DNA from: an archaeon
Lineage (GTDB): Archaea > Thermoproteota > Thermoprotei > Thermofilales > JAPDKD01
DNA: 24,000 bases
Reading direction: 5' to 3'
NCBI GenBank assembly: GCA_029258735.1
Contig: JAPDKD010000054.1
Location: 878 to 24,877, forward strand
The position numbers and the translations under genes are program-made. The notes under the pieces are model-generated. The model saw only the letters and a list, made by a program, of their open reading frames with translations, had not been told where the DNA came from and ran no database searches. Below, one piece after another: positions 1,358 through 23,598 of the stretch. Position 1 is the first letter of the stretch, and the number at the start of each line of letters is the position of its first letter.

Positions 1358-2401
1358 ATGTCGATGAAAACATCGCGACAAGTCGGAATAGTAGGCTATG
1401 GAGCGTACGTACCCATATACAGAATAAAAAACCAAGAAATAGCTAGAGTATGGGGTAAATCGACGTGGCCTATAAAGGAGAAAAGCGTGCCCGGCTTAGA
1501 TGAAGATTCTCTTACAATGGCATATGAAGCATCATATAATGCCGTAAAAAGGGCTCAAATACCGCCCGAAGAAATAGAAGCCGTCTACGTGGGCTCGGAA
1601 AGCCCCCCATACGCCGTTAAGCCGTCGGCAACAGTAATTGCCGAAGCTTTGGGCATAACGCCGCGACTAATAGCTATCGATATGGAATTTGCTTGTAGGG
1701 CGGGAACAACGGCGCTGCAGAGCGTTATAGGTCTGGTAGGTAGTGGAATGATAAAATATGGGCTTGCAGTTGGAACCGATACTGCTCAGGGCAGACCTGG
1801 AGACGCTTTGGAATTTACGGCTGCCGCCGGAGCAGCGGCATTCATCGTCGGAAAAGGTGAAGAAGCTCTGGCAGAAATAGAAGCCACATATTCCTATGTA
1901 ACAGATACTCCGGATTTTTGGCGTCGTGAAGGGCAAAAATATCCTAGACATGGTGGACGCTTTACGGGAGACCCTGCCTATTTTAAGCACATAGTTGAGG
2001 CTGCGCGAGGGTTAATGAGCGAGGCTGGTCTAGCCCCCCAAGACTTCGACTATGTGGTGTTTCATCAGCCAAACTTGAAATTTCCCTTGAGAGTTGCTAA
2101 AAGGCTAGGTTTCAGTAAGGAGCAGGTAAGTGCTGGGCTTTTATCGGGTATTATCGGCAATACTTACGCCGCCGCGTCTATGATAGGCTTAGCAGCGGTT
2201 TTAGATAAGGCTAAACCAGGCGAGCGGATACTCGTAGTGTCTTTTGGAAGCGGTGCTGGAAGCGACGCAATAAGCTTAGTTACGACCGAGCTTCTTGAAC
2301 AAAAGAGGAGCTTAGCCCCGCTCGTTGAAAGCTACATCAATCGCAGGATATACGTGGACTACGCGACATATGCAAAGTTTAGGGGTAAAATAATGAGGTG
2401 A
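1358..2401 (+). CDS. archaeal hydroxymethylglutaryl-CoA synthase
   Basis: 347 aa. Motifs: [11 protein letters not shown], catalytic Cys context [17 protein letters not shown] and SFGSGAG. GGAGG at 1349-1353 precedes the start. Tightly linked to the thiolase and DUF35 genes. Confidence 0.9.
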
Positions 2402-2408
2402 GAGACCG

Positions 2409-3575
2409 ATGAGAAAAGTATACGTAGCTGGCATAGGAGCCACAAAGATAAGGGAGCACTGGGAGGTATCCCTGAGAGAACTCTTGGTAAAAGCCGCTCA
2501 AAAAGCAATAGAAGACTCAAATATTGAGAAAAAGAAGATTCAGGCAGCATTTATTGGAAACATGTCTTCTGGCGTTCTTCAGGGACAGGAACACTTGGGA
2601 AGTTTGTTTGCAACGTGGATGGGAATACCCGGCATAGCCGCTTCAAAGGTTGAAGCTGCATGCGCCAGCGGAGGAGCCGCATTTCATAGCGCTTACTTAG
2701 CAGTTGCATCAGGAATGTATGATTGCGTAATAGCTCTAGGCGTAGAAAAGATGTCGGATGCGTTAACAGGCGATGTCACAGCAGCGCTGATAATGGCCGA
2801 CGATCAAGACTACGTTGCATTTACTGGCGCTTCTTTTGTTGGTCTAAACGCGTTAGTTTATAGAGCCTACATGAAGAAGTATGGGGCTAAACAGGAGGAC
2901 ATCGCTCTCTTCGCCGTGCATGACCACAAGTATGCTGTCAATAATGAGCTTGCGCAGTTCAGAAGGGAATTCTCCCTAGAGGACGTGCTAAAGTCTCCCT
3001 TAATAGCTGATCCCATAAGATTGCTGGAATGTGCTCCAACGGGCGACGGCGCGGCTGCCGTAGTGCTTTGTTCAGAAGAATATTTAAAGGAAGCCAACAA
3101 TGAGGTTAAGATAGAGGTAGCTGCTTCTACTCTTGCCACAGATATCCTTAGCTTGCATGATAGGGACGATTTGACTACCTTGCAGGCAACGGTGAGAGCG
3201 GCTGAAAAAGCCTATAAGATGGCTAAAATATCACCTTCCGACGTTGACGTCCTAGAGGTACATGACGCCTTCACTATACTAGGCGTTATACATCTGGAGG
3301 ACCTAGGTTTTGCAAAGAAAGGAGAGGGATGGAAGCTGGTAAAAGAAGGGGAAATCGAGCTTGGCGGCAAAATACCAACGAACCTCATGGGAGGGCTAAA
3401 AGCTCGGGGGCATCCTGTAGGTGCTACGGGAATATACCAAATATATGATGCAGTAACGCAGCTAAAAGGAGAAGCAGGTAAAAACCAAGTTGACGACGCG
3501 GAAGTAGCGCTAGCGCAGAACGTGGGTGGAGTAGGCGGCACCGTTTCCATTAATATTTTTAGGAGGGTGAGATGA
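2409..3575 (+). CDS. acetyl-CoA C-acetyltransferase (archaeal thiolase)
   Basis: 388 aa. Motifs: active-site Cys context VEAACASGGAAF, EVHDAF, GHPVGATG and NVGGVGGT. Only a 7-nt gap after the HMGCS gene. Confidence 0.9.
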   Translation: MRKVYVAGIGATKIREHWEVSLRELLVKAAQKAIEDSNIEKKKIQAAFIGNMSSGVLQGQEHLGSLFATWMGIPGIAASKVEAACASGGAAFHSAYLAVASGMYDCVIALGVEKMSDALTGDVTAALIMADDQDYVAFTGASFVGLNALVYRAYMKKYGAKQEDIALFAVHDHKYAVNNELAQFRREFSLEDVLKSPLIADPIRLLECAPTGDGAAAVVLCSEEYLKEANNEVKIEVAASTLATDILSLHDRDDLTTLQATVRAAEKAYKMAKISPSDVDVLEVHDAFTILGVIHLEDLGFAKKGEGWKLVKEGEIELGGKIPTNLMGGLKARGHPVGATGIYQIYDAVTQLKGEAGKNQVDDAEVALAQNVGGVGGTVSINIFRRVR

Positions 3576-3576
3576 G

Positions 3577-3981
3577 ATGGTGAAAGCTAATAGTATACCT
3601 CGAGTATGGAGAGAAAGAACGATAAAGTACAGGCTCATAGGGGGCAAATGCAAGAAATGCGGCAAAAGCTTCTATCCATTTAGGCGCATATGCCCAAGGT
3701 GCGGAAGCGAAGAAATCGAGGAGGTTCACCTTCCACGAGAAGGAAAGCTGCTATATTACACGGTTATAAGGGCCCCTCCCTCAGATTTTGAGGAATACGC
3801 GCCGTATGTTGTCGGCATAGTTGAGCTGAAAGATGGTACAAGAGTATTAGCACAGATTACCGACGTTGTTGAAGACCAGTTAGAGGAGGGAGTCGATGTA
3901 GAAGCGGTATTCAGAAAATACAGGGAGCAGGGTAAAGAAGGAATAATAGAATACGGGATAAAGTTCCGCCCCAAAACCTAA
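3577..3981 (+). CDS. DUF35 OB-fold/Zn-ribbon protein (scaffold of the thiolase/HMGCS complex)
   Basis: 134 aa. CKKCGKSFYPFRRICPRCGS zinc ribbon followed by an OB-like segment (VVGIVELKDGTRVLAQI). The start is 1 nt after the thiolase stop. Confidence 0.85.
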   Translation: MVKANSIPRVWRERTIKYRLIGGKCKKCGKSFYPFRRICPRCGSEEIEEVHLPREGKLLYYTVIRAPPSDFEEYAPYVVGIVELKDGTRVLAQITDVVEDQLEEGVDVEAVFRKYREQGKEGIIEYGIKFRPKT

Positions 3982-6712: not shown

Positions 6713-6737
6713 TTAGCGATGTGCAAACTTGCACACC

Positions 6738-6765
6738 TGTGCATGTGCATGCACATGCACATGCA
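6738..6765. repeat. 28-nt alternating pyrimidine-purine tract containing a 24-bp perfect palindrome (6738-6761), within an array of seven TGCA cores (6722-6765)
   Basis: Read directly: TGTGCATGTGCA|TGCACATGCACA is its own reverse complement. The Y-R alternation is unbroken from T6738 to A6765. An adjacent inverted repeat is GTGCAA(6721-6726)/TTGCAC(6729-6734). Confidence 0.95.
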
Positions 6766-6804
6766 ATTTATGATTTGCCTCTGCTGAATAAGCTCGGTGA
6801 AAAC

Positions 6805-7383
6805 ATGAGTTTAATTAAATGGATTCTTATAGGTGTCGGATTCTTAGTGTTATTTCACGTTTCAAAAATACTTAGCCTGTTAATCTTAGCGGGATATATA
6901 ATATATAAATTGACTGGACGAATAAGAAATAACATAGAGGATAAAAAGGGATTCAAAAGAAAACTAAAAATAACTACTAAAATTAACGAAAATTTCTCAA
7001 ATAAAAATAAAATGATACATGTTGTGGAAAACAGCGAGGATAAATACATTTCAATAGGCATAGGCAAGTGGCTAAAACCCTCAAAGTACATATTATCCTC
7101 TTCGAAGGCCTTCCAAGAGATTGTCAACGACCTTTCCTTATTTTCTTCAGAAACAGGGACAGATCTTTTTCTTATTGCTAACTTAAGGTCTTTAATGAAG
7201 GAGCCAGAAATTATACTTGCCCCGGTGTGCAGGGAACTATCTCTAATAAGTGCTGCCAAAAAACTTAACGCAATCGACGACGCAATAGCCTCCTACCTAG
7301 CAGTAAAAGGGTACGCTTTTGAAAAGAAAAAATCAGATAAGTCAGAGGATGTGGTTGCAATTGCAAGTAATAGTTCTATCTAA
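6805..7383 (+). CDS. hypothetical membrane protein (2 N-terminal TM helices plus a cytoplasmic domain)
   Basis: The start is moved to ATG 6805, which has GGTGA at 6795-6799 upstream. The TM segments are WILIGVGFLVLFHV and LSLLILAGYIIY. No family recognised. Contains a P-loop-like remnant, ISIGIGKW. Confidence 0.5.
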   Translation: MSLIKWILIGVGFLVLFHVSKILSLLILAGYIIYKLTGRIRNNIEDKKGFKRKLKITTKINENFSNKNKMIHVVENSEDKYISIGIGKWLKPSKYILSSSKAFQEIVNDLSLFSSETGTDLFLIANLRSLMKEPEIILAPVCRELSLISAAKKLNAIDDAIASYLAVKGYAFEKKKSDKSEDVVAIASNSSI

Positions 7384-8332
7384 ATTGCCGGATAGCGTAG
7401 AAAACGGCATCCTTTTCACAAATAATATTTCAAAAGCTTCTCAACCAGTATTTTGTGTGCATAAAAATATGCTAAGATTTGCCGCTTACGGCTTCGTTGC
7501 TGATAAATTACTAACATTCAAAGATTATAATCGCCTTCTTTTTCTCTCTAGATATCTAAACAAGGACTATATAGCAATCAGCGACCTAGCATGTATTGCC
7601 CCTCTGACTCTTTTTGAGACATTTTTAGCTGTTAGCCCCTATTTTTCTAACAGTCCTTCAAAAATGGAAAAAGCATACTATGTTGATCCTATATTTTACA
7701 ATACGTCAATTCTTTCGACAGTAGCTAGCGAATTATCTTCACGGAGAGCGTTTGAATCAATCATATTAGATTACGCCGACTTTCTAGATGAAGCTACACT
7801 TAAAGTTTTAAATCTTCTACTTCAAGGATTAAACGTAAATATATACTTAGTCTTCTATAACTTAAATAAGGCTTTGAAGCTTTCGACAGCATCTCGAATA
7901 GACATGTACGGCGGCGTCTTAAGTGTAGCCGCGCTCAAGCGATTAAGAATAGAAAGATATCTTCCTCCAACGCTTGAAAGCGTCTTTAATCCTGGCGAAG
8001 TTACAATAAACAGGAGGAAGGGTTTTCTCTCCATAGTTTCACCTATCAAAGAAGAAAAAGTTCAAAACTTCCTATTAACAAGCCAATCACAGGAAAGGAT
8101 CGATCTGAAGAGCATTTTTGGACAAAAAAGCGAGAGAATACTTGAGCTTTTAAGAGAACTTCACAGCGTGGGAGGCGTTGCACTCTATCAAGCATTTTTG
8201 GAGTGGGCACACACATTGAACCTCAAAGTTCAAGACGTACTAAAGTTAATATATACAGAATATATTTCCATCGAAAGACATTCCTCAAGTTTATACGTAA
8301 AGTTAAGTTACAAAGGTTTCCACATAATTTAA
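7319..8332 (+). CDS. hypothetical protein with a C-terminal winged-helix-like domain; possible decayed archaeal-ATPase-like core
   Basis: 337-aa ORF with alternative starts at 7349 and 7469. Walker-B-like IILDYADFLDEAT, but no Walker A. The C-terminal ERILELLRELHSVGGVALYQAFLEW is wHTH-like. Overlaps the upstream ORF by up to 65 nt in another frame. Confidence 0.45.
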   Translation: MKRKNQISQRMWLQLQVIVLSKLPDSVENGILFTNNISKASQPVFCVHKNMLRFAAYGFVADKLLTFKDYNRLLFLSRYLNKDYIAISDLACIAPLTLFETFLAVSPYFSNSPSKMEKAYYVDPIFYNTSILSTVASELSSRRAFESIILDYADFLDEATLKVLNLLLQGLNVNIYLVFYNLNKALKLSTASRIDMYGGVLSVAALKRLRIERYLPPTLESVFNPGEVTINRRKGFLSIVSPIKEEKVQNFLLTSQSQERIDLKSIFGQKSERILELLRELHSVGGVALYQAFLEWAHTLNLKVQDVLKLIYTEYISIERHSSSLYVKLSYKGFHII

Positions 8333-8361: not shown

Positions 8362-8844
8362 ATGGACGTTTTCATAGTTGACGACGAAAAAATAGCAGAA
8401 GCGTTAGAAGACAAAGTAAGAATCGACATTCTAGTATTATTAAAGCATAAAGGAGAACTTCATGTAAACAAAATTTCTCAACTACTACATAAACACAGGT
8501 CAACTATAACTAGACACCTAACAAAGCTTATAGAAGCAGAATTAATCGAAAAAATTCCAACACAATCAGGCTACGTATATCGTCTAACAAACAGGGGTAA
8601 TAAAGTATTGGAGGGCCTTCAAGAGAGTGGTTTTACAGTACGAGTAAAACTACAAAAGCAGAGTAAACAAAAGCTATTTTACAATACAATAATTGTTGTT
8701 CTCGCAGTTTTGTTGCTTTATATTGTTATTACTCCTATAAGTATTCACGCATTAACTAGGATCATTATTATAGTGCCATTAGCATATATATTATATACAC
8801 TAATTAAAAAATCAAAGGAAACGCCCGCCTCAAAACAAGATTAG
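8362..8844 (+). CDS. ArsR-like wHTH regulator with two C-terminal TM helices
   Basis: 160 aa. The wHTH is VRIDILVLLKHKGELHVNKISQLLHKHRSTITRHLTKLIEAELIEK. The hydrophobic segments are LFYNTIIVVLAVLLLYIVITPISI and IIIIVPLAYILYTLI. Confidence 0.65.
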   Translation: MDVFIVDDEKIAEALEDKVRIDILVLLKHKGELHVNKISQLLHKHRSTITRHLTKLIEAELIEKIPTQSGYVYRLTNRGNKVLEGLQESGFTVRVKLQKQSKQKLFYNTIIVVLAVLLLYIVITPISIHALTRIIIIVPLAYILYTLIKKSKETPASKQD

Positions 8845-9754
8845 TAACATAGCTAATGTAAAACAGAGCAAACACTATAAGAAGTGCCCGGTCCAGCGGG
8901 AGATGCTTAAATATAGATATTGTAGAAGCTAAATACGTCAAAGTCAGAACTTGAAGAGTTCTGTAAATAATATATGATACAAGCAGATAGTCCACCGAAA
9001 AAGCCGCAGCAATAACAGGTATTAATGTATTCTCAAGAAGGGAAAAAGAGAAAATCGGCAAAAACGCTACGAGCGTAGCAGAAAGTATCTCCCACTCCCA
9101 CTCTCTATGGCCCAAGAGACGGCATATAAGATCTAAGAGAGCCGTAACCCCAAGCCAGCTAACTAAAAGTTTTACAACCAACCATAGAGGCCTAGGCAGC
9201 GATACAACGCCTAGATTCACCAATTCAGCAGGACTCTGATTATATTTTCTACTAAGTTCAAATAACGTTAAATCCAAGTTACCAAGGTTAACGAGGACTA
9301 TAGCCATAGAAAATGTTATCAGCATAGCTATGCTTGCCAAACGTTCATCTTTATACATGCTTATGAAAATTGCCTCAGGGAAAATTATTTTTCTAAGATA
9401 GTTTTGATAGAAACGATATAGCTTGCTTTTAGGCCTCAATGTGTGTTCAATTCTCCTAGATTCTTCCCTAATAATATTGTAAAGTATTTTCCCTCTTTCG
9501 GTGAGAACATACCTTTTATTAGCGTCCTTTTCAACGTAACCCTGCAACGCGTCGAGATTATAATAAAGATTCCCAACGCTTATCTTCAGAGCCTTTCTAA
9601 GCTCGCTGAAAGATGCTCCATTACGTTGTCCCAAAAAAAGTATAATTGTTCGCCTATTCTGGTTTCCTAATACATTATATAAGTCATCAGGGCTGATCTC
9701 GTATGAGCTTACACGTGAATTTTCGCGAGGCATAGCTACGTCACGCTTGAACAC
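8804..9754 (-). CDS. wHTH (ArsR-like) regulator fused to a polytopic membrane domain (about 5-6 TM)
   Basis: 316 aa. N-terminal LGNQNRRTIILFLGQRNGASFSELRKALKISVGNLYYNLDALQGYVEKD, followed by multiple hydrophobic helices. The start is GTG 9754 or ATG 9733. The 3' end overlaps the convergent wHTH gene by 41 nt. Confidence 0.6.
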   Translation of the reverse strand: MFKRDVAMPRENSRVSSYEISPDDLYNVLGNQNRRTIILFLGQRNGASFSELRKALKISVGNLYYNLDALQGYVEKDANKRYVLTERGKILYNIIREESRRIEHTLRPKSKLYRFYQNYLRKIIFPEAIFISMYKDERLASIAMLITFSMAIVLVNLGNLDLTLFELSRKYNQSPAELVNLGVVSLPRPLWLVVKLLVSWLGVTALLDLICRLLGHREWEWEILSATLVAFLPIFSFSLLENTLIPVIAAAFSVDYLLVSYIIYRTLQVLTLTYLASTISIFKHLPLDRALLIVFALFYISYVTNLVLRRAFPLIF

Positions 9755-10122: not shown

Positions 10123-10830
10123 CTATTGCTCATAGGTACTATTATAAAATTGAAGTAGCACGTTGTACTCGTTAATTAGTTCTTGAGGTATCTTATATAT
10201 TGATTTATCATAAGGTATGAGGAAGATATCATTGTAAAATTCTCGGGAAAGGAACCTTAAAACATTATAGTAGTTAATCCTTCCTTTTTTCAAAATTTTA
10301 ATTTTTTTCTTGCCTTTTTCTTCAAAATTGGCGGCTTCTATCATTTTTACTAAGCGCATAGATGATCTTAATGCTTCTTTTAATTCATGCGTCGATGTTA
10401 AAGCATCAGGTGTTATTTTCACCCAAAGAACTCCGCCGATTTTGTCTAACAAGGTATTTTTTACTTTCTCTACATTTCTGGGAGCCGCTTCTATGCATAA
10501 ATTATTCTTGTAACTTGAAAATAAGTCAAATAGAGAGTTTAGTTCACGCTTTAAAATTTTTAAAGGTATATTGGCAGCGATATATCTAATTTTGAGCTCG
10601 TCAGCAATGATAAGAGTTCTCTCTAAAACATCGCGACTATAGCTATGCATGTACAATTGTAGGGCATAATACGGCATATCTAGGAAAAATAGGGTATCTA
10701 CGATTTCGCTTACGCCTTTCTCTTCGATCTCAGTATCTGCGATTTGAGGTACAACTGGTATCTTAAAGATTTCTAAATATCTGTTAACTATTTCCAGGTC
10801 TTGTAGCCGCATTTTTACTACTAGCTTCAT
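10123..10830 (-). CDS. hypothetical protein (weak resemblance to the xylose-isomerase-like TIM-barrel pattern)
   Basis: 235-aa ORF with no recognisable catalytic motif. The alternating strand/helix pattern (IIADELKIRYIAANIP, NNLCIEAAP, VLWVKITPDA) is only suggestive. Confidence 0.4.
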   Translation of the reverse strand: MKLVVKMRLQDLEIVNRYLEIFKIPVVPQIADTEIEEKGVSEIVDTLFFLDMPYYALQLYMHSYSRDVLERTLIIADELKIRYIAANIPLKILKRELNSLFDLFSSYKNNLCIEAAPRNVEKVKNTLLDKIGGVLWVKITPDALTSTHELKEALRSSMRLVKMIEAANFEEKGKKKIKILKKGRINYYNVLRFLSREFYNDIFLIPYDKSIYKIPQELINEYNVLLQFYNSTYEQ

Positions 10831-10960
10831 TACCGCACTGAAAATTTCCTAGAAATATACGCTTAAAAGAGTTTCCATAGCACCCACGCTTAAGAGAAAT
10901 AATACGGGAGTATTACTTCTGTAGATTTTTAGTTTATATTTTGTTTTTGCTAGATAAGTT

Positions 10961-10969
10961 TTTTATAAA
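10961..10969 (+). promoter_or_regulatory. TATA box (TTTTATAAA)
   Basis: Centred about 22-34 nt upstream of the TTG 10987 and GTG 10999 candidate starts. Consistent with a leaderless or short-leader transcript. Confidence 0.4.
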
Positions 10970-10986: not shown

Positions 10987-11421
10987 TTGGGGTTAAAAGT
11001 GTCGTATGTACTAGAAGAGTACGACGGGTTCGGTCAGCTACTTGCCAGCATAGATAATAGAATCAAGGACCTGCAGCAAAAGTATAATGCGCTTTCGCAG
11101 AGGCAGCAAGCGCTCAGCGTCCAAGCTGAGAGAATAAGGAGGCTAGAAGAAGCGCTAAGCAAACTAGTCGGCAGCGAGATTAAAAGCATTAGGGAAATAG
11201 ATTTCATGGGGCTGAAAGTAGTGGTGGGGGCTAGAGTAGTTGATGAGCTAGCTGTAGTAGAGGAAGTTTTAACCTCAGTGTCAGATACTCTAATGGCCCT
11301 ACAGAAGGTTCGAGACGTAATAGACCAGCTAGCAAAATCCGTAGGCGAAAGTAGCGGAATAAAAATCTTAGTAGAAGCTATTAACGGCATACCTGTACGG
11401 CTACTTCTACGTGAAACTTAA
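10987..11421 (+). CDS. cytoplasmic coiled-coil protein (coil - short beta segment - coil)
   Basis: 144 aa. Heptad-rich N-terminal (IKDLQQKYNALSQRQQALSVQAERIRRLEEALSKL) and C-terminal helices. No signal peptide. The stop overlaps the next ATG (TAATG at 11419-11423). The start is TTG 10987 or GTG 10999. Confidence 0.5.
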   Translation: MGLKVSYVLEEYDGFGQLLASIDNRIKDLQQKYNALSQRQQALSVQAERIRRLEEALSKLVGSEIKSIREIDFMGLKVVVGARVVDELAVVEEVLTSVSDTLMALQKVRDVIDQLAKSVGESSGIKILVEAINGIPVRLLLRET

Positions 11422-13916
11422 TGAAACTTAGACGTACAGCGATTTTTCTCAATATAGCTCTAATTTTCTTTTTAGTTCCTTTAAATGCCTTTGTTGCGAA
11501 CTCCAGCCCTGACGAGTTCACATTAAAACGCCTAAGACTTAATGCACAAGTAACCGCCGTATGCAAAGCTGATAGATACGGAGTTGCTATACTAGGCCTC
11601 GAAAACGGCACTATTCTAGCTTTAGGTAAAAACGTAATAAGGCACTTAACTGCAATACACGCTAAACCCCTGGCATGCGATTTTGCTGAGGAGTCAAGCA
11701 AGCTTATTGTATCAGCTAGCGATGGAAGCCTAGTACTAATATCTTTGAACTCTAATATAGAAGCTGTTAGCACGTCTTTGCTGCGACTTTTACCAGGGGA
11801 TGAAACTATTAAAAATGTAGCTGTATCTCAGGATGCGCGGTTCGCGGTTCTACGGGTAATTTACACTTATCATGAAAGAGAGGCCGAAAAGCTTGTATTT
11901 ATTGATATGATAAAAAGGCATATAGTGGCTGTAAGAGACGCGGATAGCACACCTAGCTTAGTGAGAATATTCTATTTTAAAAGAGTTGGAGATGTTCTTC
12001 TTCTACAAACACTAGATACATTCTGCGAACTTTGCGAATATACTGACAATCTTATTGAAGCCTATAATTTATCAAGCCTTAAAAGACTTTATTGGGAGAA
12101 AATAGGACTTTCTCTAGAGGCAGTTTCTGAAGTAAGTGACAAACTGACATTATTTAAACTTTTACCCGAAAATGGTAAATATAATGTCTTAATTTTAAAC
12201 TATAAAAGCGGGAAAATTTTATCTAAATTTAAAGTTGATTATGAACCGCAACAAATATTATTTTTCGATCAATATCTAGCTTTCATTAAAGATGCGTCAA
12301 TAAACATTTACGACCTTAAGGGCGCAATCAAAAAAACAATAAAAATACCGATTTCCTCTAGAGCATGCAGTAGCGATGGCTTTTTATTCATAGCTTCTCC
12401 AGCGTCAATAGAAATTTACGACAAAAAATTCAGCATAAGATATGAGGCCTCGATAGAATATAAGCCTCCGCCAAAGCCATGTTATTTATGCGTCGCCTTT
12501 CCGGGCGCGGCACTAATAGTATATCATGATAAAAAGACTGTTTATATTGTTTCAAGGCTTACCCAGATTTTATTCGAGGCGTTAATTCTTGACGAAGAAG
12601 AAAATCTTGTGCAAAATGCCCATATAGAACTTTTTGATGAGAAAGGCCTATTATTATATGCTGGAAGGTCTGGAAGTGATGGGAAAATTGCTGCCGTAAT
12701 TGATCTTAATAAGTCATTAACAGAATTGATTAAAATAAAAGTATTTAAAAAGGGATTTGGAAATAAAACCTTGTGGGTAAAGCTCGAGAACGAATCTTTA
12801 TCTTTAAAGATAAGGATAGAAAAAACAAAGCAAGTATTTCAACTAATGATAAAGGTTCTTGACGAAGATAAAAATCCCGTAAAAAACGCATTTGTAGCTA
12901 TCTACACAGCTGATCAAAAATACGTAGATGGAGGTTTATCTAATCAAAACGGAATAGTTTCCTTTAATCTAAGCGAGGGAAGATATAGAGTCAAAGTTAC
13001 AAAACAGAACTTTTACGAAAAAGAAGAATTAGTTGACATATCTTCTAGCGAATCTCCAATAGAAAAGGTAGTAATTCTGAGAAAGCGAAAGCCCTATCTT
13101 ACAGTTACTCTACCTACAAATAGCAGCATCACGCATTTAATTATATCTGGACCTGATTTTGAGCGAAAGATTGAAAACATTACGCAGAATATTTACGTGC
13201 TGCCCCTTTCAGATGTAGGCTACTATTTCATAAAAGTATTTGCAAAATGTGGGTCGAAAAACTACGAAATTTACGTTGAACAAAACGTAACAATAAATAT
13301 AGAACAAATTAAATGCTATGGACATAACGCCTCCTTAGGCAAAAGAAAAGATGAGCTTCTCGACCAAATAAAAGATGAATTATCAAAACATGTAATTCAC
13401 CTAGAAGAGAAAGAGATTCCAATATCCGGGGTTCTTACCTCATACGATGGAACCTTTGTGTTGGATTTGAATGCAAGAGACGAGATTATAATCTTAGAGT
13501 TGTTTTACACTAAGTGCTGGGGATGCGAAAAACTAATACCTTTAATAAACAACCTCTCAAAAACTTACAATACAATTATTGGAGGCATGGTTACAATTTA
13601 TCAAACTGATAGTGATCAGGATATTGAAGAATACATTAAAACACACAACGTTGAGGTTCCAGTGTTTAGGGACACCCTAAGTTTAAAGGAGAAAGTTGGA
13701 GTTAGTGTTGTACCAGCAGTAATTGTAATAGTGGACGGCAAAATAAGGTTGATGGGTGTAGGAGCAAAAATTAACGAAAGCAACGCGTTTGCAAAGCCCA
13801 ATCTATCAGAACTAGTGGACTTGAATTCGCTTCCTAGAATATCATTTATAGTTGGTATGATATTTTTAATAGTGTTGAGTGCCTTCGGCAAGGTGAAACA
13901 AGAACATGAGGACTAA
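11421..13916 (+). CDS. large membrane-anchored surface protein: signal/anchor, beta-propeller-like repeats, 2 CarboxypepD_reg-like domains, TlpA/ResA-like thioredoxin (CWGC), C-terminal TM
   Basis: 831 aa. N-terminal MKLRRTAIFLNIALIFFLVPLNAFVA. About 8 strand-[DN]G-strand repeats. NAFVAIYTADQKYVDGGLSNQNGIVSFNLSEGRYRVKVTKQNFYEKEE matches the CarboxypepD_reg pattern. ELFYTKCWGCEKLIP is the thioredoxin motif (CWGC at nt 13515-13526). The C-terminal TM is ISFIVGMIFLIVLSAFG. Confidence 0.8.
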   Translation: MKLRRTAIFLNIALIFFLVPLNAFVANSSPDEFTLKRLRLNAQVTAVCKADRYGVAILGLENGTILALGKNVIRHLTAIHAKPLACDFAEESSKLIVSASDGSLVLISLNSNIEAVSTSLLRLLPGDETIKNVAVSQDARFAVLRVIYTYHEREAEKLVFIDMIKRHIVAVRDADSTPSLVRIFYFKRVGDVLLLQTLDTFCELCEYTDNLIEAYNLSSLKRLYWEKIGLSLEAVSEVSDKLTLFKLLPENGKYNVLILNYKSGKILSKFKVDYEPQQILFFDQYLAFIKDASINIYDLKGAIKKTIKIPISSRACSSDGFLFIASPASIEIYDKKFSIRYEASIEYKPPPKPCYLCVAFPGAALIVYHDKKTVYIVSRLTQILFEALILDEEENLVQNAHIELFDEKGLLLYAGRSGSDGKIAAVIDLNKSLTELIKIKVFKKGFGNKTLWVKLENESLSLKIRIEKTKQVFQLMIKVLDEDKNPVKNAFVAIYTADQKYVDGGLSNQNGIVSFNLSEGRYRVKVTKQNFYEKEELVDISSSESPIEKVVILRKRKPYLTVTLPTNSSITHLIISGPDFERKIENITQNIYVLPLSDVGYYFIKVFAKCGSKNYEIYVEQNVTINIEQIKCYGHNASLGKRKDELLDQIKDELSKHVIHLEEKEIPISGVLTSYDGTFVLDLNARDEIIILELFYTKCWGCEKLIPLINNLSKTYNTIIGGMVTIYQTDSDQDIEEYIKTHNVEVPVFRDTLSLKEKVGVSVVPAVIVIVDGKIRLMGVGAKINESNAFAKPNLSELVDLNSLPRISFIVGMIFLIVLSAFGKVKQEHED

Positions 13917-13998
13917 GAAGCTGCTTTCAATCCTAATAACTCTTCTCTTCCTATTCTCTGTTATAGCTACAGCTTTGCTATTAGTGTTTAAGCCGTAA
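13906..13998 (+). CDS. candidate 30-aa single-TM micro-protein (MRTKKLLSILITLLFLFSVIATALLLVFKP)
   Basis: Not in the ORF track because it is too short. The ATG at 13906 overlaps the last 11 nt of the 831-aa gene in another frame. It has a basic N-terminus plus one hydrophobic helix, and a TAA stop at 13996-13998. Confidence 0.3.
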   Translation: MRTKKLLSILITLLFLFSVIATALLLVFKP

Positions 13999-14048: not shown

Positions 14049-14393
14049 GTGAGGAAGTTGGGAGGAAGGAAGAAGCCAACAATTTCACAGTTGGAGAAGA
14101 GGACAAAACGACAGGCACGAGAGAAGGAGAAAAAACGTGAAAGAAAGTTTGAAATGGTTCTAGATACTTCGGGCAGGCTTACTCAGGCTTCAATCGACCA
14201 AATAATTGGCGAGATAAGGCGAATGCGGTATGTTACGCCATATGTTATCGCGTCAAAATTTGGCTTAAAAATTAGTAGAGCACGCAGAATCCTGAGAAGA
14301 TTATCAGAGGAGGGTGTTGTAAAGGTTTATGACTATAATAGGAGAGTGCCTATTTACGTTCCCGTTAAAGGAGGTCAGAAAGGTAAACTTTAG
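14049..14393 (+). CDS. rps25e: 30S ribosomal protein eS25 (S25e)
   Basis: A basic N-terminus (GGRKKPTISQLEKRTKRQAREKEKK) followed by a winged helix (YVTPYVIASKFGLKISRARRILRRLSEEGVVKVY), typical of archaeal S25e. The start is GTG 14049 or TTG 14058. Confidence 0.85.
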   Translation: MRKLGGRKKPTISQLEKRTKRQAREKEKKRERKFEMVLDTSGRLTQASIDQIIGEIRRMRYVTPYVIASKFGLKISRARRILRRLSEEGVVKVYDYNRRVPIYVPVKGGQKGKL

Positions 14394-15114
14394 GCTTTTT
14401 CCGGTATTCCTTTTTTAAGTTAATTACTCCAAGTCTAGTTCTTTCAATAAAACCCATACTTGAAAGCTTTTCTATAACTTCTTCGGGATTTTCCACTTTC
14501 ATTCCTTTAAGATCTTCTTTGAATCTAATTTCGCCTACGCTCCAATAAGTAAGTAGATATTTTAGCGCCTTGCGAATGTTCTCGTCTGGCAGTGAATTAA
14601 GATCAATCTCGTAGGCTTCTTGTTTAATATTTTCTTTTTTTGGAGGTCTCTCGCTGATTTCTTTAGTTTTCTTTTCTTCGGTTTCTTTTTTCTTGGGTTC
14701 CTCAAAAAATGTTAGAAGGGACTTTGTTGCGGCTGGTGGTTTCTCTCTTTCTAACCGCTTTTTTTGCGTTTTTCTTTTTATCTTTCTCGGCTTTTTTATC
14801 CTCTCCTTTTTCCTTATTGAAGGCTTTTCCGCAATTAATTTCAGTTCTTTTCTTTCTTCTCTTTTTTCTTGTGTTTTGAGCGATATTTCCTTGGGTATGC
14901 TTATTTTTAAATCCTCATCGACTATGATGGTGTCTTCTGAGGTTATGATTCTTTTTTCCTTTTTAAGGTCATTTATTAATAAGTATAGTGTTAACGGCGA
15001 TATTTTATGTTTGCGCGTCCATTCTAGGAGAAAATCATATGTTATCTTCTTATGCTGAAGAATTTGATTGTATAACTCTTTAAGTAGAGCCTCGTATTCT
15101 CCGTTTTTATTCAT
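14365..15114 (-). CDS. hypothetical protein: N-terminal and C-terminal winged-helix-like domains joined by a long K/E-rich linker
   Basis: 249 aa. N-terminal LLEWTRKHKISPLTLYLLINDLKKEKRI. Central KKERIKKPRKIKRKTQKKRLEREK...KKKETEEKKTKE. C-terminal IRKALKYLLTYWSVGEIRF...VIEKLSSMGFIERT. The start overlaps the stop of the upstream gene (ATGAATAA). Confidence 0.55.
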   Translation of the reverse strand: MNKNGEYEALLKELYNQILQHKKITYDFLLEWTRKHKISPLTLYLLINDLKKEKRIITSEDTIIVDEDLKISIPKEISLKTQEKREERKELKLIAEKPSIRKKERIKKPRKIKRKTQKKRLEREKPPAATKSLLTFFEEPKKKETEEKKTKEISERPPKKENIKQEAYEIDLNSLPDENIRKALKYLLTYWSVGEIRFKEDLKGMKVENPEEVIEKLSSMGFIERTRLGVINLKKEYRKKPKVYLSDLL

Positions 15115-15460
15115 TGGTGGTGCCCTTTGCGTTGCTTTGCGGCGGTAATATCTTTATTAGTCCTTTGCTTGCTAGCATGCCTAAAAATGTTAGCATTGAT
15201 GTTTCAGCCTCTTTCCAGTGCAGGTCGTATTTGTCTGCTAATCTTTCTATGAGGTTTTCAACAGTTGTTCCTTGGCCGATTTGTTTCCAGACAAAAGTTC
15301 CTATTTCATCTAGTTTTATTTTTCTCTCTTTCGGCGTTGGGACAAGGCCGCTGAAAAGGCTTTTAGAACTATTATTTGACTTTAATTTTATTATTAATGT
15401 AATAATACCATCTTCTTCTATCCATTCAATATTTTCTGATCTTTTAACGATGCTTTTCAT
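15107..15460 (-). CDS. PqqD-family / RRE-like (RiPP recognition element-like) protein
   Basis: 117 aa. KLDEIGTFVWKQIGQGTTVENLIERLADKYDLHWKEAETSMLTFLGMLASKGLIKIL follows the PqqD pattern (Ln.tg..iW.l.dG..tv.ei...l...y.v..e.a..dv..fl..L...gli). Confidence 0.55.
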   Translation of the reverse strand: MKSIVKRSENIEWIEEDGIITLIIKLKSNNSSKSLFSGLVPTPKERKIKLDEIGTFVWKQIGQGTTVENLIERLADKYDLHWKEAETSMLTFLGMLASKGLIKILPPQSNAKGTTNE

Positions 15461-23463: not shown

Positions 23464-23598
23464 CCCCCCGTAGCTCAGCGGAAGAGCGGCCGGCTGTAGG
23501 TCCAAACCGCGCGGCGACGAGGCACAAAGCCTGGAATGAAGCCGCGCCAGCCAATAGAAACCGGCAGGTCGGGGGTTCAAGTCCCCCCGGGGGGACCA
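23464..23598 (+). tRNA. tRNA-Tyr (anticodon GTA at 23496-23498) with a 60-nt intron at the canonical 37/38 site and an encoded CCA
   Basis: Folded by hand. Acceptor CCCCCCG/CGGGGGG (C1-G72, the archaeal/eukaryal Tyr identity pair). D stem GCTC/GAGC. Anticodon stem GCCGG/CCGGC. Loop CTGTAG[intron]A. Variable region AGGTC. T arm GGGGG-TTCAAGT-CCCCC. Discriminator A, then CCA. Confidence 0.9.
23500..23559 (+). other. tRNA-Tyr intron (bulge-helix-bulge at the splice sites, structured core)
   Basis: The 4-bp central helix is C23494-T23497 paired with A23554-G23557 (one G.T). The 3-nt bulges are AG|G (23498-23500) and AA|A (23558-23560). The internal 7-bp helix is GCGCGGC(23509-15)/GCCGCGC(23541-47). 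Confidence 0.8.

Follow-up and report, generated by a model that had tools for sequence, protein, structure and literature searches.

What might an archaeon do with a thioredoxin-like domain attached to a large beta-propeller? The question is raised by a gene at 11421..13916 on the plus strand of a stretch of 24,000 nucleotides of Thermofilales DNA (GenBank assembly GCA_029258735.1, contig JAPDKD010000054.1, positions 878 to 24,877 of the forward strand), which we analysed as a whole and call the window. An earlier reading made from the letters alone (the sequence-only reading) had placed the open reading frame (ORF) exactly there, and all the peptides which it quoted are present in the 831-aa translation. 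The ORF runs without interruption from the ATG at 11421 to the stop at 13914-13916, and its base composition is ordinary relative to the window. It is not a chance ORF, because it keeps 831 codons open at about 36% GC and has roughly 29 conserved full-length orthologues. We take the gene to be real, well delimited and conserved; what we say of its function is read from sequence and structure model. We lean modestly towards the reading that its product is a membrane-tethered extracytoplasmic thiol-disulfide oxidoreductase, with a TlpA/ResA-like catalytic module and a propeller which would bind the client or carry a second redox site. The features of the gene are the following (TM, transmembrane; Ig, immunoglobulin; AF2, AlphaFold2).

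11421..13916 (+): the target gene, coding for a surface protein with propeller, Ig-like stalk and thioredoxin-like domain, 831 aa
11421..11498 (+): signal peptide or anchor, residues 1-26, a basic KLRR then a hydrophobic core (hydropathy; pattern in all orthologues)
11511..12560 (+): eight-bladed WD40/PQQ-like beta-propeller, residues 31-380 (AF2, Foldseek, profile against the PDB)
12024..12035 (+): second invariant CxxC, C202-E-L-C205, inside the block LQTLDTFCELCEYTDNLIEAYN, in an enlarged loop between strands 192-198 and 211-216
12561..12818 (+): Ig-like beta-sandwich 1, CarboxypepD_reg-like, residues 381-466 (AF2 strands; CarboxypepD_reg match in orthologues)
12831..13079 (+): Ig-like beta-sandwich 2, CarboxypepD_reg, residues 471-553 (Pfam PF13620 match at residues 478-542)
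13092..13316 (+): beta-sandwich 3 with the cysteine pair C610/C632, residues 558-632 (AF2 model)
13338..13763 (+): helix and TlpA/ResA-like thioredoxin-fold domain, residues 640-781 (ResA profile match, secondary-structure order)
13515..13526 (+): active-site motif C699-W-G-C702 within FYTKCWGCE; C699, G701 and C702 invariant
13713..13715 (+): Pro765, candidate cis-proline opposite the CxxC, invariant, aligned with the Pro-Thr of ResA
13836..13892 (+): C-terminal TM helix, residues 806-824 (hydropathy 2.32 over 19 residues; kept in all members)
13893..13913 (+): short charged tail (VKQEHED) following the TM helix, predicted cytoplasmic

Conservation, domain architecture and topology

We looked for relatives of the protein with a word-indexed search of 5.8 billion proteins, which returned only seven, and then with an exhaustive HMMER profile search of 1.84 billion cluster representatives, which added ~17 further full-length representatives of 718-877 aa. 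The remaining HMMER matches were giant CarboxypepD_reg repeat proteins whose similarity is confined to the stalk (profile positions 386-556). A profile of 21 sequences gave no new members in a further large protein search, the output of which was swamped by such CarboxypepD_reg repeat proteins. A scan of one genome per species found the family in Thermofilaceae, Thermofilum, Infirmifilum and unclassified Thermoprotei metagenome-assembled genomes (MAGs), and the NCBI taxonomy places Thermofilaceae in the order Thermofilales. In the sequences searched, the family is confined to Thermofilales. Its cultured carriers are Thermofilum pendens Hrk5 (ABL78162.1 / A1RY82) and Infirmifilum lucidum (QOJ79565.1). 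We found no paper in the literature characterising the family, and the databases give automatic names only, A1RY82 being called 'Redoxin domain protein' in UniProt and 'carboxypeptidase regulatory-like domain-containing protein' at NCBI. We also observed one locus filed under 'Spirochaetes bacterium B123_G9' (QNBI01000129.1, our locus L012), where the target lies together with its archaeal partner gene (described below) and the motifs and tail are identical to those of a Thermofilaceae contig (L011); this is probably an archaeal contig mis-binned into a bacterial MAG.

The conservation figures given here come from an alignment of 21 sequences reaching down to 19% identity, and the motifs were inspected in further full-length orthologues as well. 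Invariant columns number 16 out of 831, and include C202, C205, C699, G701, C702 and P765. Both CxxC motifs are kept in every full-length orthologue inspected (about 29 distinct sequences, those of T. pendens and I. lucidum included), and they are still present in the two orthologues which are shorter and have one stalk domain fewer. The ectodomain around them diverges fast, at about 20% identity across the family.

The structure was modelled twice with AF2. The first run, on 6 sequences, had a predicted local distance difference test score (pLDDT) of 69 and left residues 174-242 unmodelled, the CExC block of the propeller included. The second, on 21 sequences, reached a pLDDT of 82.8 with a predicted template modelling score (pTM) of 0.54, so that the geometry between domains is not reliable in this model. 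In this second run residues 33-379 form 32 strands, that is eight four-stranded blades, and are followed by beta-sandwiches at 381-466, 471-553 and 558-632, a helix at 640-657, a thioredoxin-type domain at 658-781, a disordered linker at 782-805 and the TM helix at 806-824. Foldseek run against the PDB returned WD40 propellers, the best being the eight-bladed ODA16 (template modelling score 0.70 normalised to the target), as well as the Ig-repeat TIE protein and 1l0q, an archaeal S-layer fragment with a YVTN propeller and PKD. A profile of the N-terminal domain, compared with PDB sequences, matches PQQ-like and WD40 propellers (the designed 'Cake', YncE, BamB), down to 1e-12.

In the stalk, CarboxypepD_reg (PF13620) is recognised at residues 478-542 (E=4e-8, 33.9 bits for a gathering cutoff of 32.3 bits); all six close members match this family (best E 7e-22), and two such stretches are detected in orthologues. 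The sandwiches are nevertheless three and not two, because the AF2 model adds a third one (558-632), which no Pfam family recognises. We rejected the possibility that this third sandwich is an nDsbD-like domain, as a direct test gave no similarity to nDsbD. Its cysteines C610 and C632 are lost in some members, both together in P0012 and P0041, and from this pattern they would fit a structural disulfide. Since this pair is dispensable, the strict invariance of C202/C205 and C699/C702 is the more telling.

A profile built from the thioredoxin-like domain of the family (A3) was compared with PDB sequences. It matches ResA over its full length (5.9e-12, profile positions 25-145 of 147), and also StoA (1.2e-9), SOQ1 (7djj, 9.8e-9), NHLRC2 (6gc1, 1.8e-8) and other TlpA-like proteins. 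Distant members, P0041 and P0065 among them, exceed the curated Pfam cutoffs for AhpC-TSA, Redoxin and Thioredoxin_8. By these profile matches, membership in the TlpA/ResA-like family is solid at the level of the whole family. The AF2 model has the TlpA-like order of strands and helices, in which the CxxC leads into a helix (702/706-715 in the two models), a further helix and strand are inserted, and Pro765 comes before the penultimate strand; the cis conformation of this proline is a candidate one, and its position is invariant. The active-site motif reads FFYTxC[W/T/E/S/P]GC across the family. The active-site block is 64% identical to that of distant members, and around F-Y-T-x-C-x-G-C and the proline the sequence drifts to about 30% identity.

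The invariant CxxC of the propeller lies in a block whose family form is (Q/E)T(L/I)DTxCExCExTDNxIE(V/A)Y. No other part of the propeller is conserved so well: identity to distant members is 56% in the block and 23% over the propeller as a domain. Nothing in the PDB matches the block when the propeller-domain profile is compared with PDB sequences. Judging from the model, loop 199-210, which carries the CExC, would be an enlarged B-C loop, and the conserved segments RDxxS (172-181) and GLS (228-231) would be D-A loops. As these segments would sit on D-A and B-C loops, all three would lie on the propeller face where binding or active sites are usually found (convention as in PMC6107167).

Much of what the sequence-only reading had described in the protein is recovered in this way: an N-terminal anchor, a C-terminal TM helix and a charged tail (the hydrophobic maxima fall at 7-25 and 807-825 in all orthologues), about eight propeller blades, a TlpA/ResA-like thioredoxin fold, and a cis-Pro context, which corresponds to the invariant Pro765. 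It had counted two carboxypeptidase-regulatory-like sandwiches; the two CarboxypepD_reg stretches are there, but the model has a third sandwich. It had asked whether CWGC is conserved, and the answer is yes for C699, G701 and C702 but no for the second position of the motif, which may be W, T, E, S or P. It had overlooked the CxxC of the propeller (C202/C205), the coiled-coil gene at 10999-11421 and the gene of a 30-aa TM peptide at 13906-13998.

In all members of the family the N-terminus is signal-like, and one TM helix near the C-terminus leads into basic residues and, after them, acidic ones. We counted N-x-S/T sequons and compared them with composition-matched shuffles: the family has 292 for 108 expected, a 2.7-fold excess, and the target protein 14 for 4.6±1.9 expected. 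Sequons are not enriched in cytoplasmic neighbours, the Lhr helicase having 3 for 3.6 expected. Because of the signal-like N-terminus, the C-terminal TM helix and this excess of sequons, the ectodomain with both CxxC motifs is predicted to be very probably outside the cell, and the outward-facing topology of the sequence-only reading is, as a prediction, confirmed. The thioredoxin domain would then be proximal to the membrane and the propeller distal. The only membrane segments of the protein are the N-terminal signal or anchor and the one C-terminal TM helix, and there is no conserved membrane cysteine.

The tail beyond the helix differs within the family. In the Thermofilum and Infirmifilum type (L010, L013, L015-L019; P0030, P0032, P0039, P0045, P0057, P0067) it has 24-66 aa, compared with 6 aa in the window protein, a net charge of -8 to -12, a recurring (D/S)SLRG(F/Y/D)N-like motif and aromatic or acidic endings (..DEYW, ..DIDF, ..ESWEE). 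To judge from its sequence, this acidic tail looks like a docking motif for a cytoplasmic partner.

Linked genes and surroundings

The features flanking the target gene are listed below.

10960..10969 (+): TATA-like box TTTTTATAAA, putative operon promoter, about 30 nt upstream of the likely start of the partner, at archaeal promoter spacing
10999..11421 (+): partner gene, coiled-coil protein of about 140 aa; mechanical ORF from TTG 10987, likely start GTG 10999
13906..13998 (+): mini-gene for a 30-aa single-TM peptide, MRTKKLLSILITLLFLFSVIATALLLVFKP, unannotated; its ATG overlaps the last codons and stop of the target

The TATA-like boxes were read by eye, and a scan for sigma-70 promoters and intrinsic terminators was discarded as not applicable to an archaeon. 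The database gene call gives the partner 140 aa (P0175), its homologues having about 140-145 aa. A homologue of the partner stands immediately upstream of the target at every locus which has upstream sequence, T. pendens and I. lucidum included; in the complete genomes of these two the pair lies amid otherwise unrelated genes. In the window the TAA stop of the partner overlaps the ATG of the target as TAATG. The partner family has 75 members, all from Thermofilales. It has diverged less than the target: identity to Thermofilum is about 45% for the partner and about 22% for the target. The protein has no signal peptide and no TM helix. Its profile compared with the PDB gives coiled-coil noise only (V-ATPase subunit E 0.04, prefoldin 0.27), and Pfam coiled-coil families stay below threshold. 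The UniRef label 'Prefoldin subunit alpha' of the T. pendens partner is supported neither by that prefoldin score nor by Pfam.

The mini-gene is conserved in three divergent clades and is listed by no gene caller. Synonymous and nonsynonymous codon differences stand at 20:3 between the window and locus L001 and at 13:0 between loci L004 and L009; in the two remaining frames the figures are 3:18 and 1:20, and stops interrupt these frames. By these codon comparisons the mini-gene is under strong purifying selection. It is absent at the position 3' of the target in Thermofilum and Infirmifilum proper. The next gene, S25e, has an apparent TATA-like box of its own, so that the transcription unit would comprise the genes of partner and target and, in this clade, that of the mini-peptide as well.

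The wider gene order is that of a gene for a helix-turn-helix (HTH) protein, one for a DUF7347 membrane-HTH protein, one for a 68-aa membrane protein, one for a 235-aa protein of no assigned role, the coiled-coil gene, the target, S25e, PBP2, a PqqD-like gene and Lhr. This order is common to the closer relatives and is broken up in Thermofilum and Infirmifilum. The sequence-only reading had drawn attention to a three-gene neighbourhood. What is retained of it is the upstream coiled-coil gene, always linked, and, for some members of the family, the mini-gene. The synteny of S25e, PBP2, PqqD, the 235-aa gene and DUF7347 is a matter of lineage and breaks elsewhere.

Several other observations were made on the surroundings. 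The DUF7347 protein (winged-helix HTH and multi-pass Yip1-like membrane domain; 8804-9754, minus strand) and the protein of ~235-250 aa (10123-10830, minus strand) are encoded near each other again and again across Thermofilales (L015-L019), a linkage which is independent of the target. The PqqD-like protein (15107-15460, minus strand, 117 aa, Pfam E=3e-12) stands alone and has the peptide-chaperone fold of recognition in ribosomally synthesised and post-translationally modified peptide (RiPP) systems; its gene is conserved beside PBP2 and S25e, and the window has no radical-SAM or other peptide-maturation gene alongside it. The convergent 3' ends of S25e and PBP2 (PolB1-binding protein 2) overlap by about 29 nt (14365-14393), an arrangement kept at orthologous loci. 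At 6721-8332 (plus strand) two overlapping ORFs of 220 and 337 aa, with no Pfam match, form a pair conserved in L001-L008. At 1358-3981 (plus strand) lie an HMG-CoA-synthase-like gene, a thiolase gene and a DUF35/ChsH2 OB-fold gene, the genes of the archaeal acetoacetyl-CoA thiolase / HMG-CoA synthase complex; as this trio is found within about 4 kb of the partner and target pair in T. pendens and I. lucidum, the region appears to be anciently syntenic and rearranged. Finally, an Rfam tRNA match of 132 nt at 23464-23595 (plus strand, model positions 1-71), not called by ARAGORN, is probably an intron-containing archaeal tRNA.

A proposed mechanism and its rivals

The reading which we favour would work as follows. 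The target would be a type-I membrane protein of the Thermofilales envelope, its whole ectodomain lying outside the cytoplasmic membrane. Catalysis would fall to the TlpA/ResA-like domain next to the membrane, whose helix 1 begins at C-x-G-C, with the proline opposite. The three Ig-like domains would form a stalk holding the eight-bladed propeller, which may be a binding platform for a client or ligand, and the C-E-x-C loop of which may be a second redox-active site or else a site worked on by the thioredoxin domain. The target would be co-transcribed and translationally coupled with the cytoplasmic coiled-coil protein and, in part of the family, also with the membrane peptide of 28-30 aa; partner and peptide would probably be subunits or assembly factors. 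A relay within the molecule, from one CxxC motif to the other, is an attractive idea in view of DsbD and of the exchange that has been proposed for SOQ1.

A number of points weigh against this reading. The two CxxC motifs stand at opposite ends of a stalk of three domains, so that a direct relay between them would be possible only if the chain folded back or an adjacent molecule took part. The Trp which usually precedes the CxxC is absent from the target, and the helix that normally closes the thioredoxin fold is missing or disordered (residues 782-805, pLDDT below 50). Taken alone, the window protein matches the Pfam thioredoxin families at residues 676-770 with 17.7-17.8 bits, under cutoffs of 23.5-27, and the NCBIfam ResA model at residues 684-785 (E=1.5e-6) far under the curated cutoff of that model; from this single sequence the thioredoxin assignment is only suggestive. 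No CcdA/DsbD, DsbB or VKOR is encoded in the window or in any neighbourhood fetched. The partner has no significant Pfam or PDB match and no recognisable fold or family. Lastly NHLRC2, with an equally conserved motif, showed no insulin-reductase activity (PMC6107167).

This last case is one reason to consider that the target may be a redox-inert surface scaffold or adhesin, whose propeller and stalk would bind an external ligand or envelope protein while the thioredoxin-like domain would be structural or binding and its disulfide static; the corresponding domain of NHLRC2 lacks classical reductase activity. A propeller with Ig-like domains and a C-terminal TM helix is a frequent layout of archaeal surface proteins, 1l0q being among our fold matches, and an ectodomain which evolves as fast as this one (about 20% identity family-wide) would suit such a role. 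However, the whole catalytic constellation, F-Y-T-x-C-x-G-C with its proline, is invariant while its surroundings drift, and the putatively structural pair C610/C632 is lost in some members, unlike the catalytic one; we consider such a scaffold unlikely. The thiols of the propeller loop could instead be ligands: the CExC would be a metal site, together with conserved Asp, Glu, Thr and Asn and perhaps with further ligands from across an oligomer interface; the propeller would be a metalloenzyme or metal sensor, and the thioredoxin domain would keep its thiols reduced. The D-x-x-C-E-x-C-E-x-T-D-N block is rich in potential ligands, and many extracellular propellers have metal centres on this same face. 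Two cysteines alone are not canonical, though, there is no CxxCH haem motif, and no known metal-binding propeller matched the CExC block, so that we would give this idea little credit.

The cultured Thermofilum strains are anaerobes and obligate sulfur reducers, and possess a PsrC-type sulfur/polysulfide reductase (PMC2678158); their two invariant thiol pairs in the target family are predicted to face outwards. The thiols of CExC, of CxGC or of both could thus attack extracellular sulfur or polysulfide and pass sulfane sulfur towards a membrane reductase, or sulfur could be the oxidant that recharges the CxxC. But this is wholly inferential: psr or sre genes are linked to the target at none of the loci inspected, the target has no rhodanese, Sud, TusA or DsrE-like module, and the family occurs only in Thermofilales while sulfur respiration is widespread in Thermoproteota. 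We find it rather improbable. We find it highly improbable, on the other hand, that the target is a classical reductant of the ResA/CcmG/TlpA type for cysteines of apocytochrome c or of copper proteins, even though the best sequence matches of its domain are ResA, StoA and TlpA-like proteins. A role in the maturation of cytochrome c or copper proteins is unlikely because T. pendens lives strictly anaerobically and lacks a pathway for haem biosynthesis (PMC2678158); moreover, the fetched neighbourhoods contain no ccm, ccs or ccdA genes, and ResA, CcmG and TlpA are small, have a single domain and are anchored at the N-terminus, as against the 831 aa, several domains and C-terminal anchor of the target.

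Some other identities were considered and rejected. The target is not the S-layer protein itself: in T. pendens the S-layer protein is assigned to A1RY64 (preprint 10.64898/2026.08.21.746120) and the member of the target family is A1RY82. Nor does it belong with the PySLP-like S-layer proteins of Thermoproteota, which have tandem Ig-like domains and a basic C-terminal tail, the tails of the target family being acidic. An archaeal sheath protein was likewise considered and rejected.

Returning to the oxidoreductase which we favour, its boldest form would make of the two- or three-gene unit a Thermofilales-specific envelope redox machine. The thioredoxin CxxC and the propeller CExC would be a thiol relay spanning the space under the S-layer, by fold-back or between neighbours. 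Its substrates would be external sulfur or polysulfide, or else envelope proteins, and it would do without a partner of DsbD/DsbB type; the cytoplasmic coiled-coil protein would be its organiser or regulator, by way of the TM helix and tail. We would be rather surprised to see this confirmed in full. That S-layer proteins or sulfur compounds are the substrates, as the sequence-only reading proposed, is speculation.

Relation to known redox-propeller fusions

The C-terminal domain of the target is homologous over its full length to ResA, StoA, CcmG and TlpA, with the CxxC at helix 1, the proline, the central insertion and a predicted tether to the outer face of the membrane. These proteins are, however, small, single-domain, and N-terminally anchored or soluble, whereas the domain is here the last module of 831 aa and is anchored C-terminally. 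The motif of the ResA type is WCxPC, and that of the target family is C[W/T/E/S/P]GC without the preceding Trp. Further, we found neither a CcdA/DsbD partner nor a cytochrome c context in the target neighbourhoods. Size, domain content, anchor polarity, motif and context show that the whole protein is not an orthologue of ResA, CcmG or TlpA.

There is a likeness to NHLRC2 of animals and bacteria and to SOQ1 of the plant thylakoid lumen, which also join a TlpA-like/Trx8 domain, a propeller and a beta-sandwich. SOQ1 is moreover anchored in a membrane with its domains on the non-cytoplasmic side, and a second cysteine pair in another of its domains is proposed to exchange with the thioredoxin motif. 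But the order in NHLRC2 and SOQ1 is thioredoxin then a propeller of six NHL blades, and it is reversed in the target, where an N-terminal propeller of eight WD40/PQQ-like blades is followed by the sandwiches, the thioredoxin domain and the TM helix. The active-site motif of these two proteins, CC(I/V)NC (PMC6107167), is absent from the target family. Their C-terminal domain is nDsbD-like and carries a cysteine pair, whereas the second invariant pair of the target is in the propeller and its sandwich 3 is not nDsbD-like. As the defining features of NHLRC2 and SOQ1 are not found, the target is an independent, convergent fusion and not an orthologue.

DsbD too combines in one polypeptide a CxxC domain of thioredoxin type and, outside the membrane like the first, a non-thioredoxin domain whose own cysteine pair is essential. 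But the target has no multi-pass membrane domain with cysteines that could carry electrons across, its cysteine-bearing sandwich is not nDsbD-like, and the cysteine pair of that sandwich is not invariant. DsbI of Helicobacter and Campylobacter is described as a Dsb redox protein fused to an extracytoplasmic beta-propeller (PMC4597128), a likeness in layout; its redox module is a DsbB-like membrane domain and not a thioredoxin fold. Archaeal surface proteins such as that of Methanosarcina with YVTN propeller and PKD (1l0q) share the extracellular propeller followed by Ig-like domains, but lack both the thioredoxin domain and a conserved CxxC.

The sequence-only reading had presented the architecture as new, and had stated that the extracytoplasmic thioredoxins are small single-domain proteins. 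The second statement was too strong, in view of NHLRC2, SOQ1 and DsbI. Of the first, it remains that we found no characterised protein of this architecture and no precedent in archaea or for this arrangement, but fusions of thioredoxin and propeller as such are known (NHLRC2, SOQ1). Hence we describe the target as a lineage-specific arrangement of a known kind of redox-propeller fusion and not as a new category.

With NHLRC2 and SOQ1 as the first two, the target is a third independent case in which a TlpA-like domain is joined to a propeller and a beta-sandwich, and this recurrence suggests a general design for client-specific redox enzymes. Should the propeller CxxC turn out to be redox-active, the family could usefully be set beside NHLRC2 and SOQ1, whose mechanisms are still unresolved. 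Finally we must note that the management of thiols and disulfides in the extracytoplasmic space, where heavily disulfide-bonded, glycosylated envelope proteins fold, is barely known in the hyperthermophilic, strictly anaerobic Thermoproteota. For this process the family is a concrete candidate, with two invariant cysteine pairs, an obligately linked partner gene and members in cultured strains, T. pendens Hrk5 and I. lucidum.

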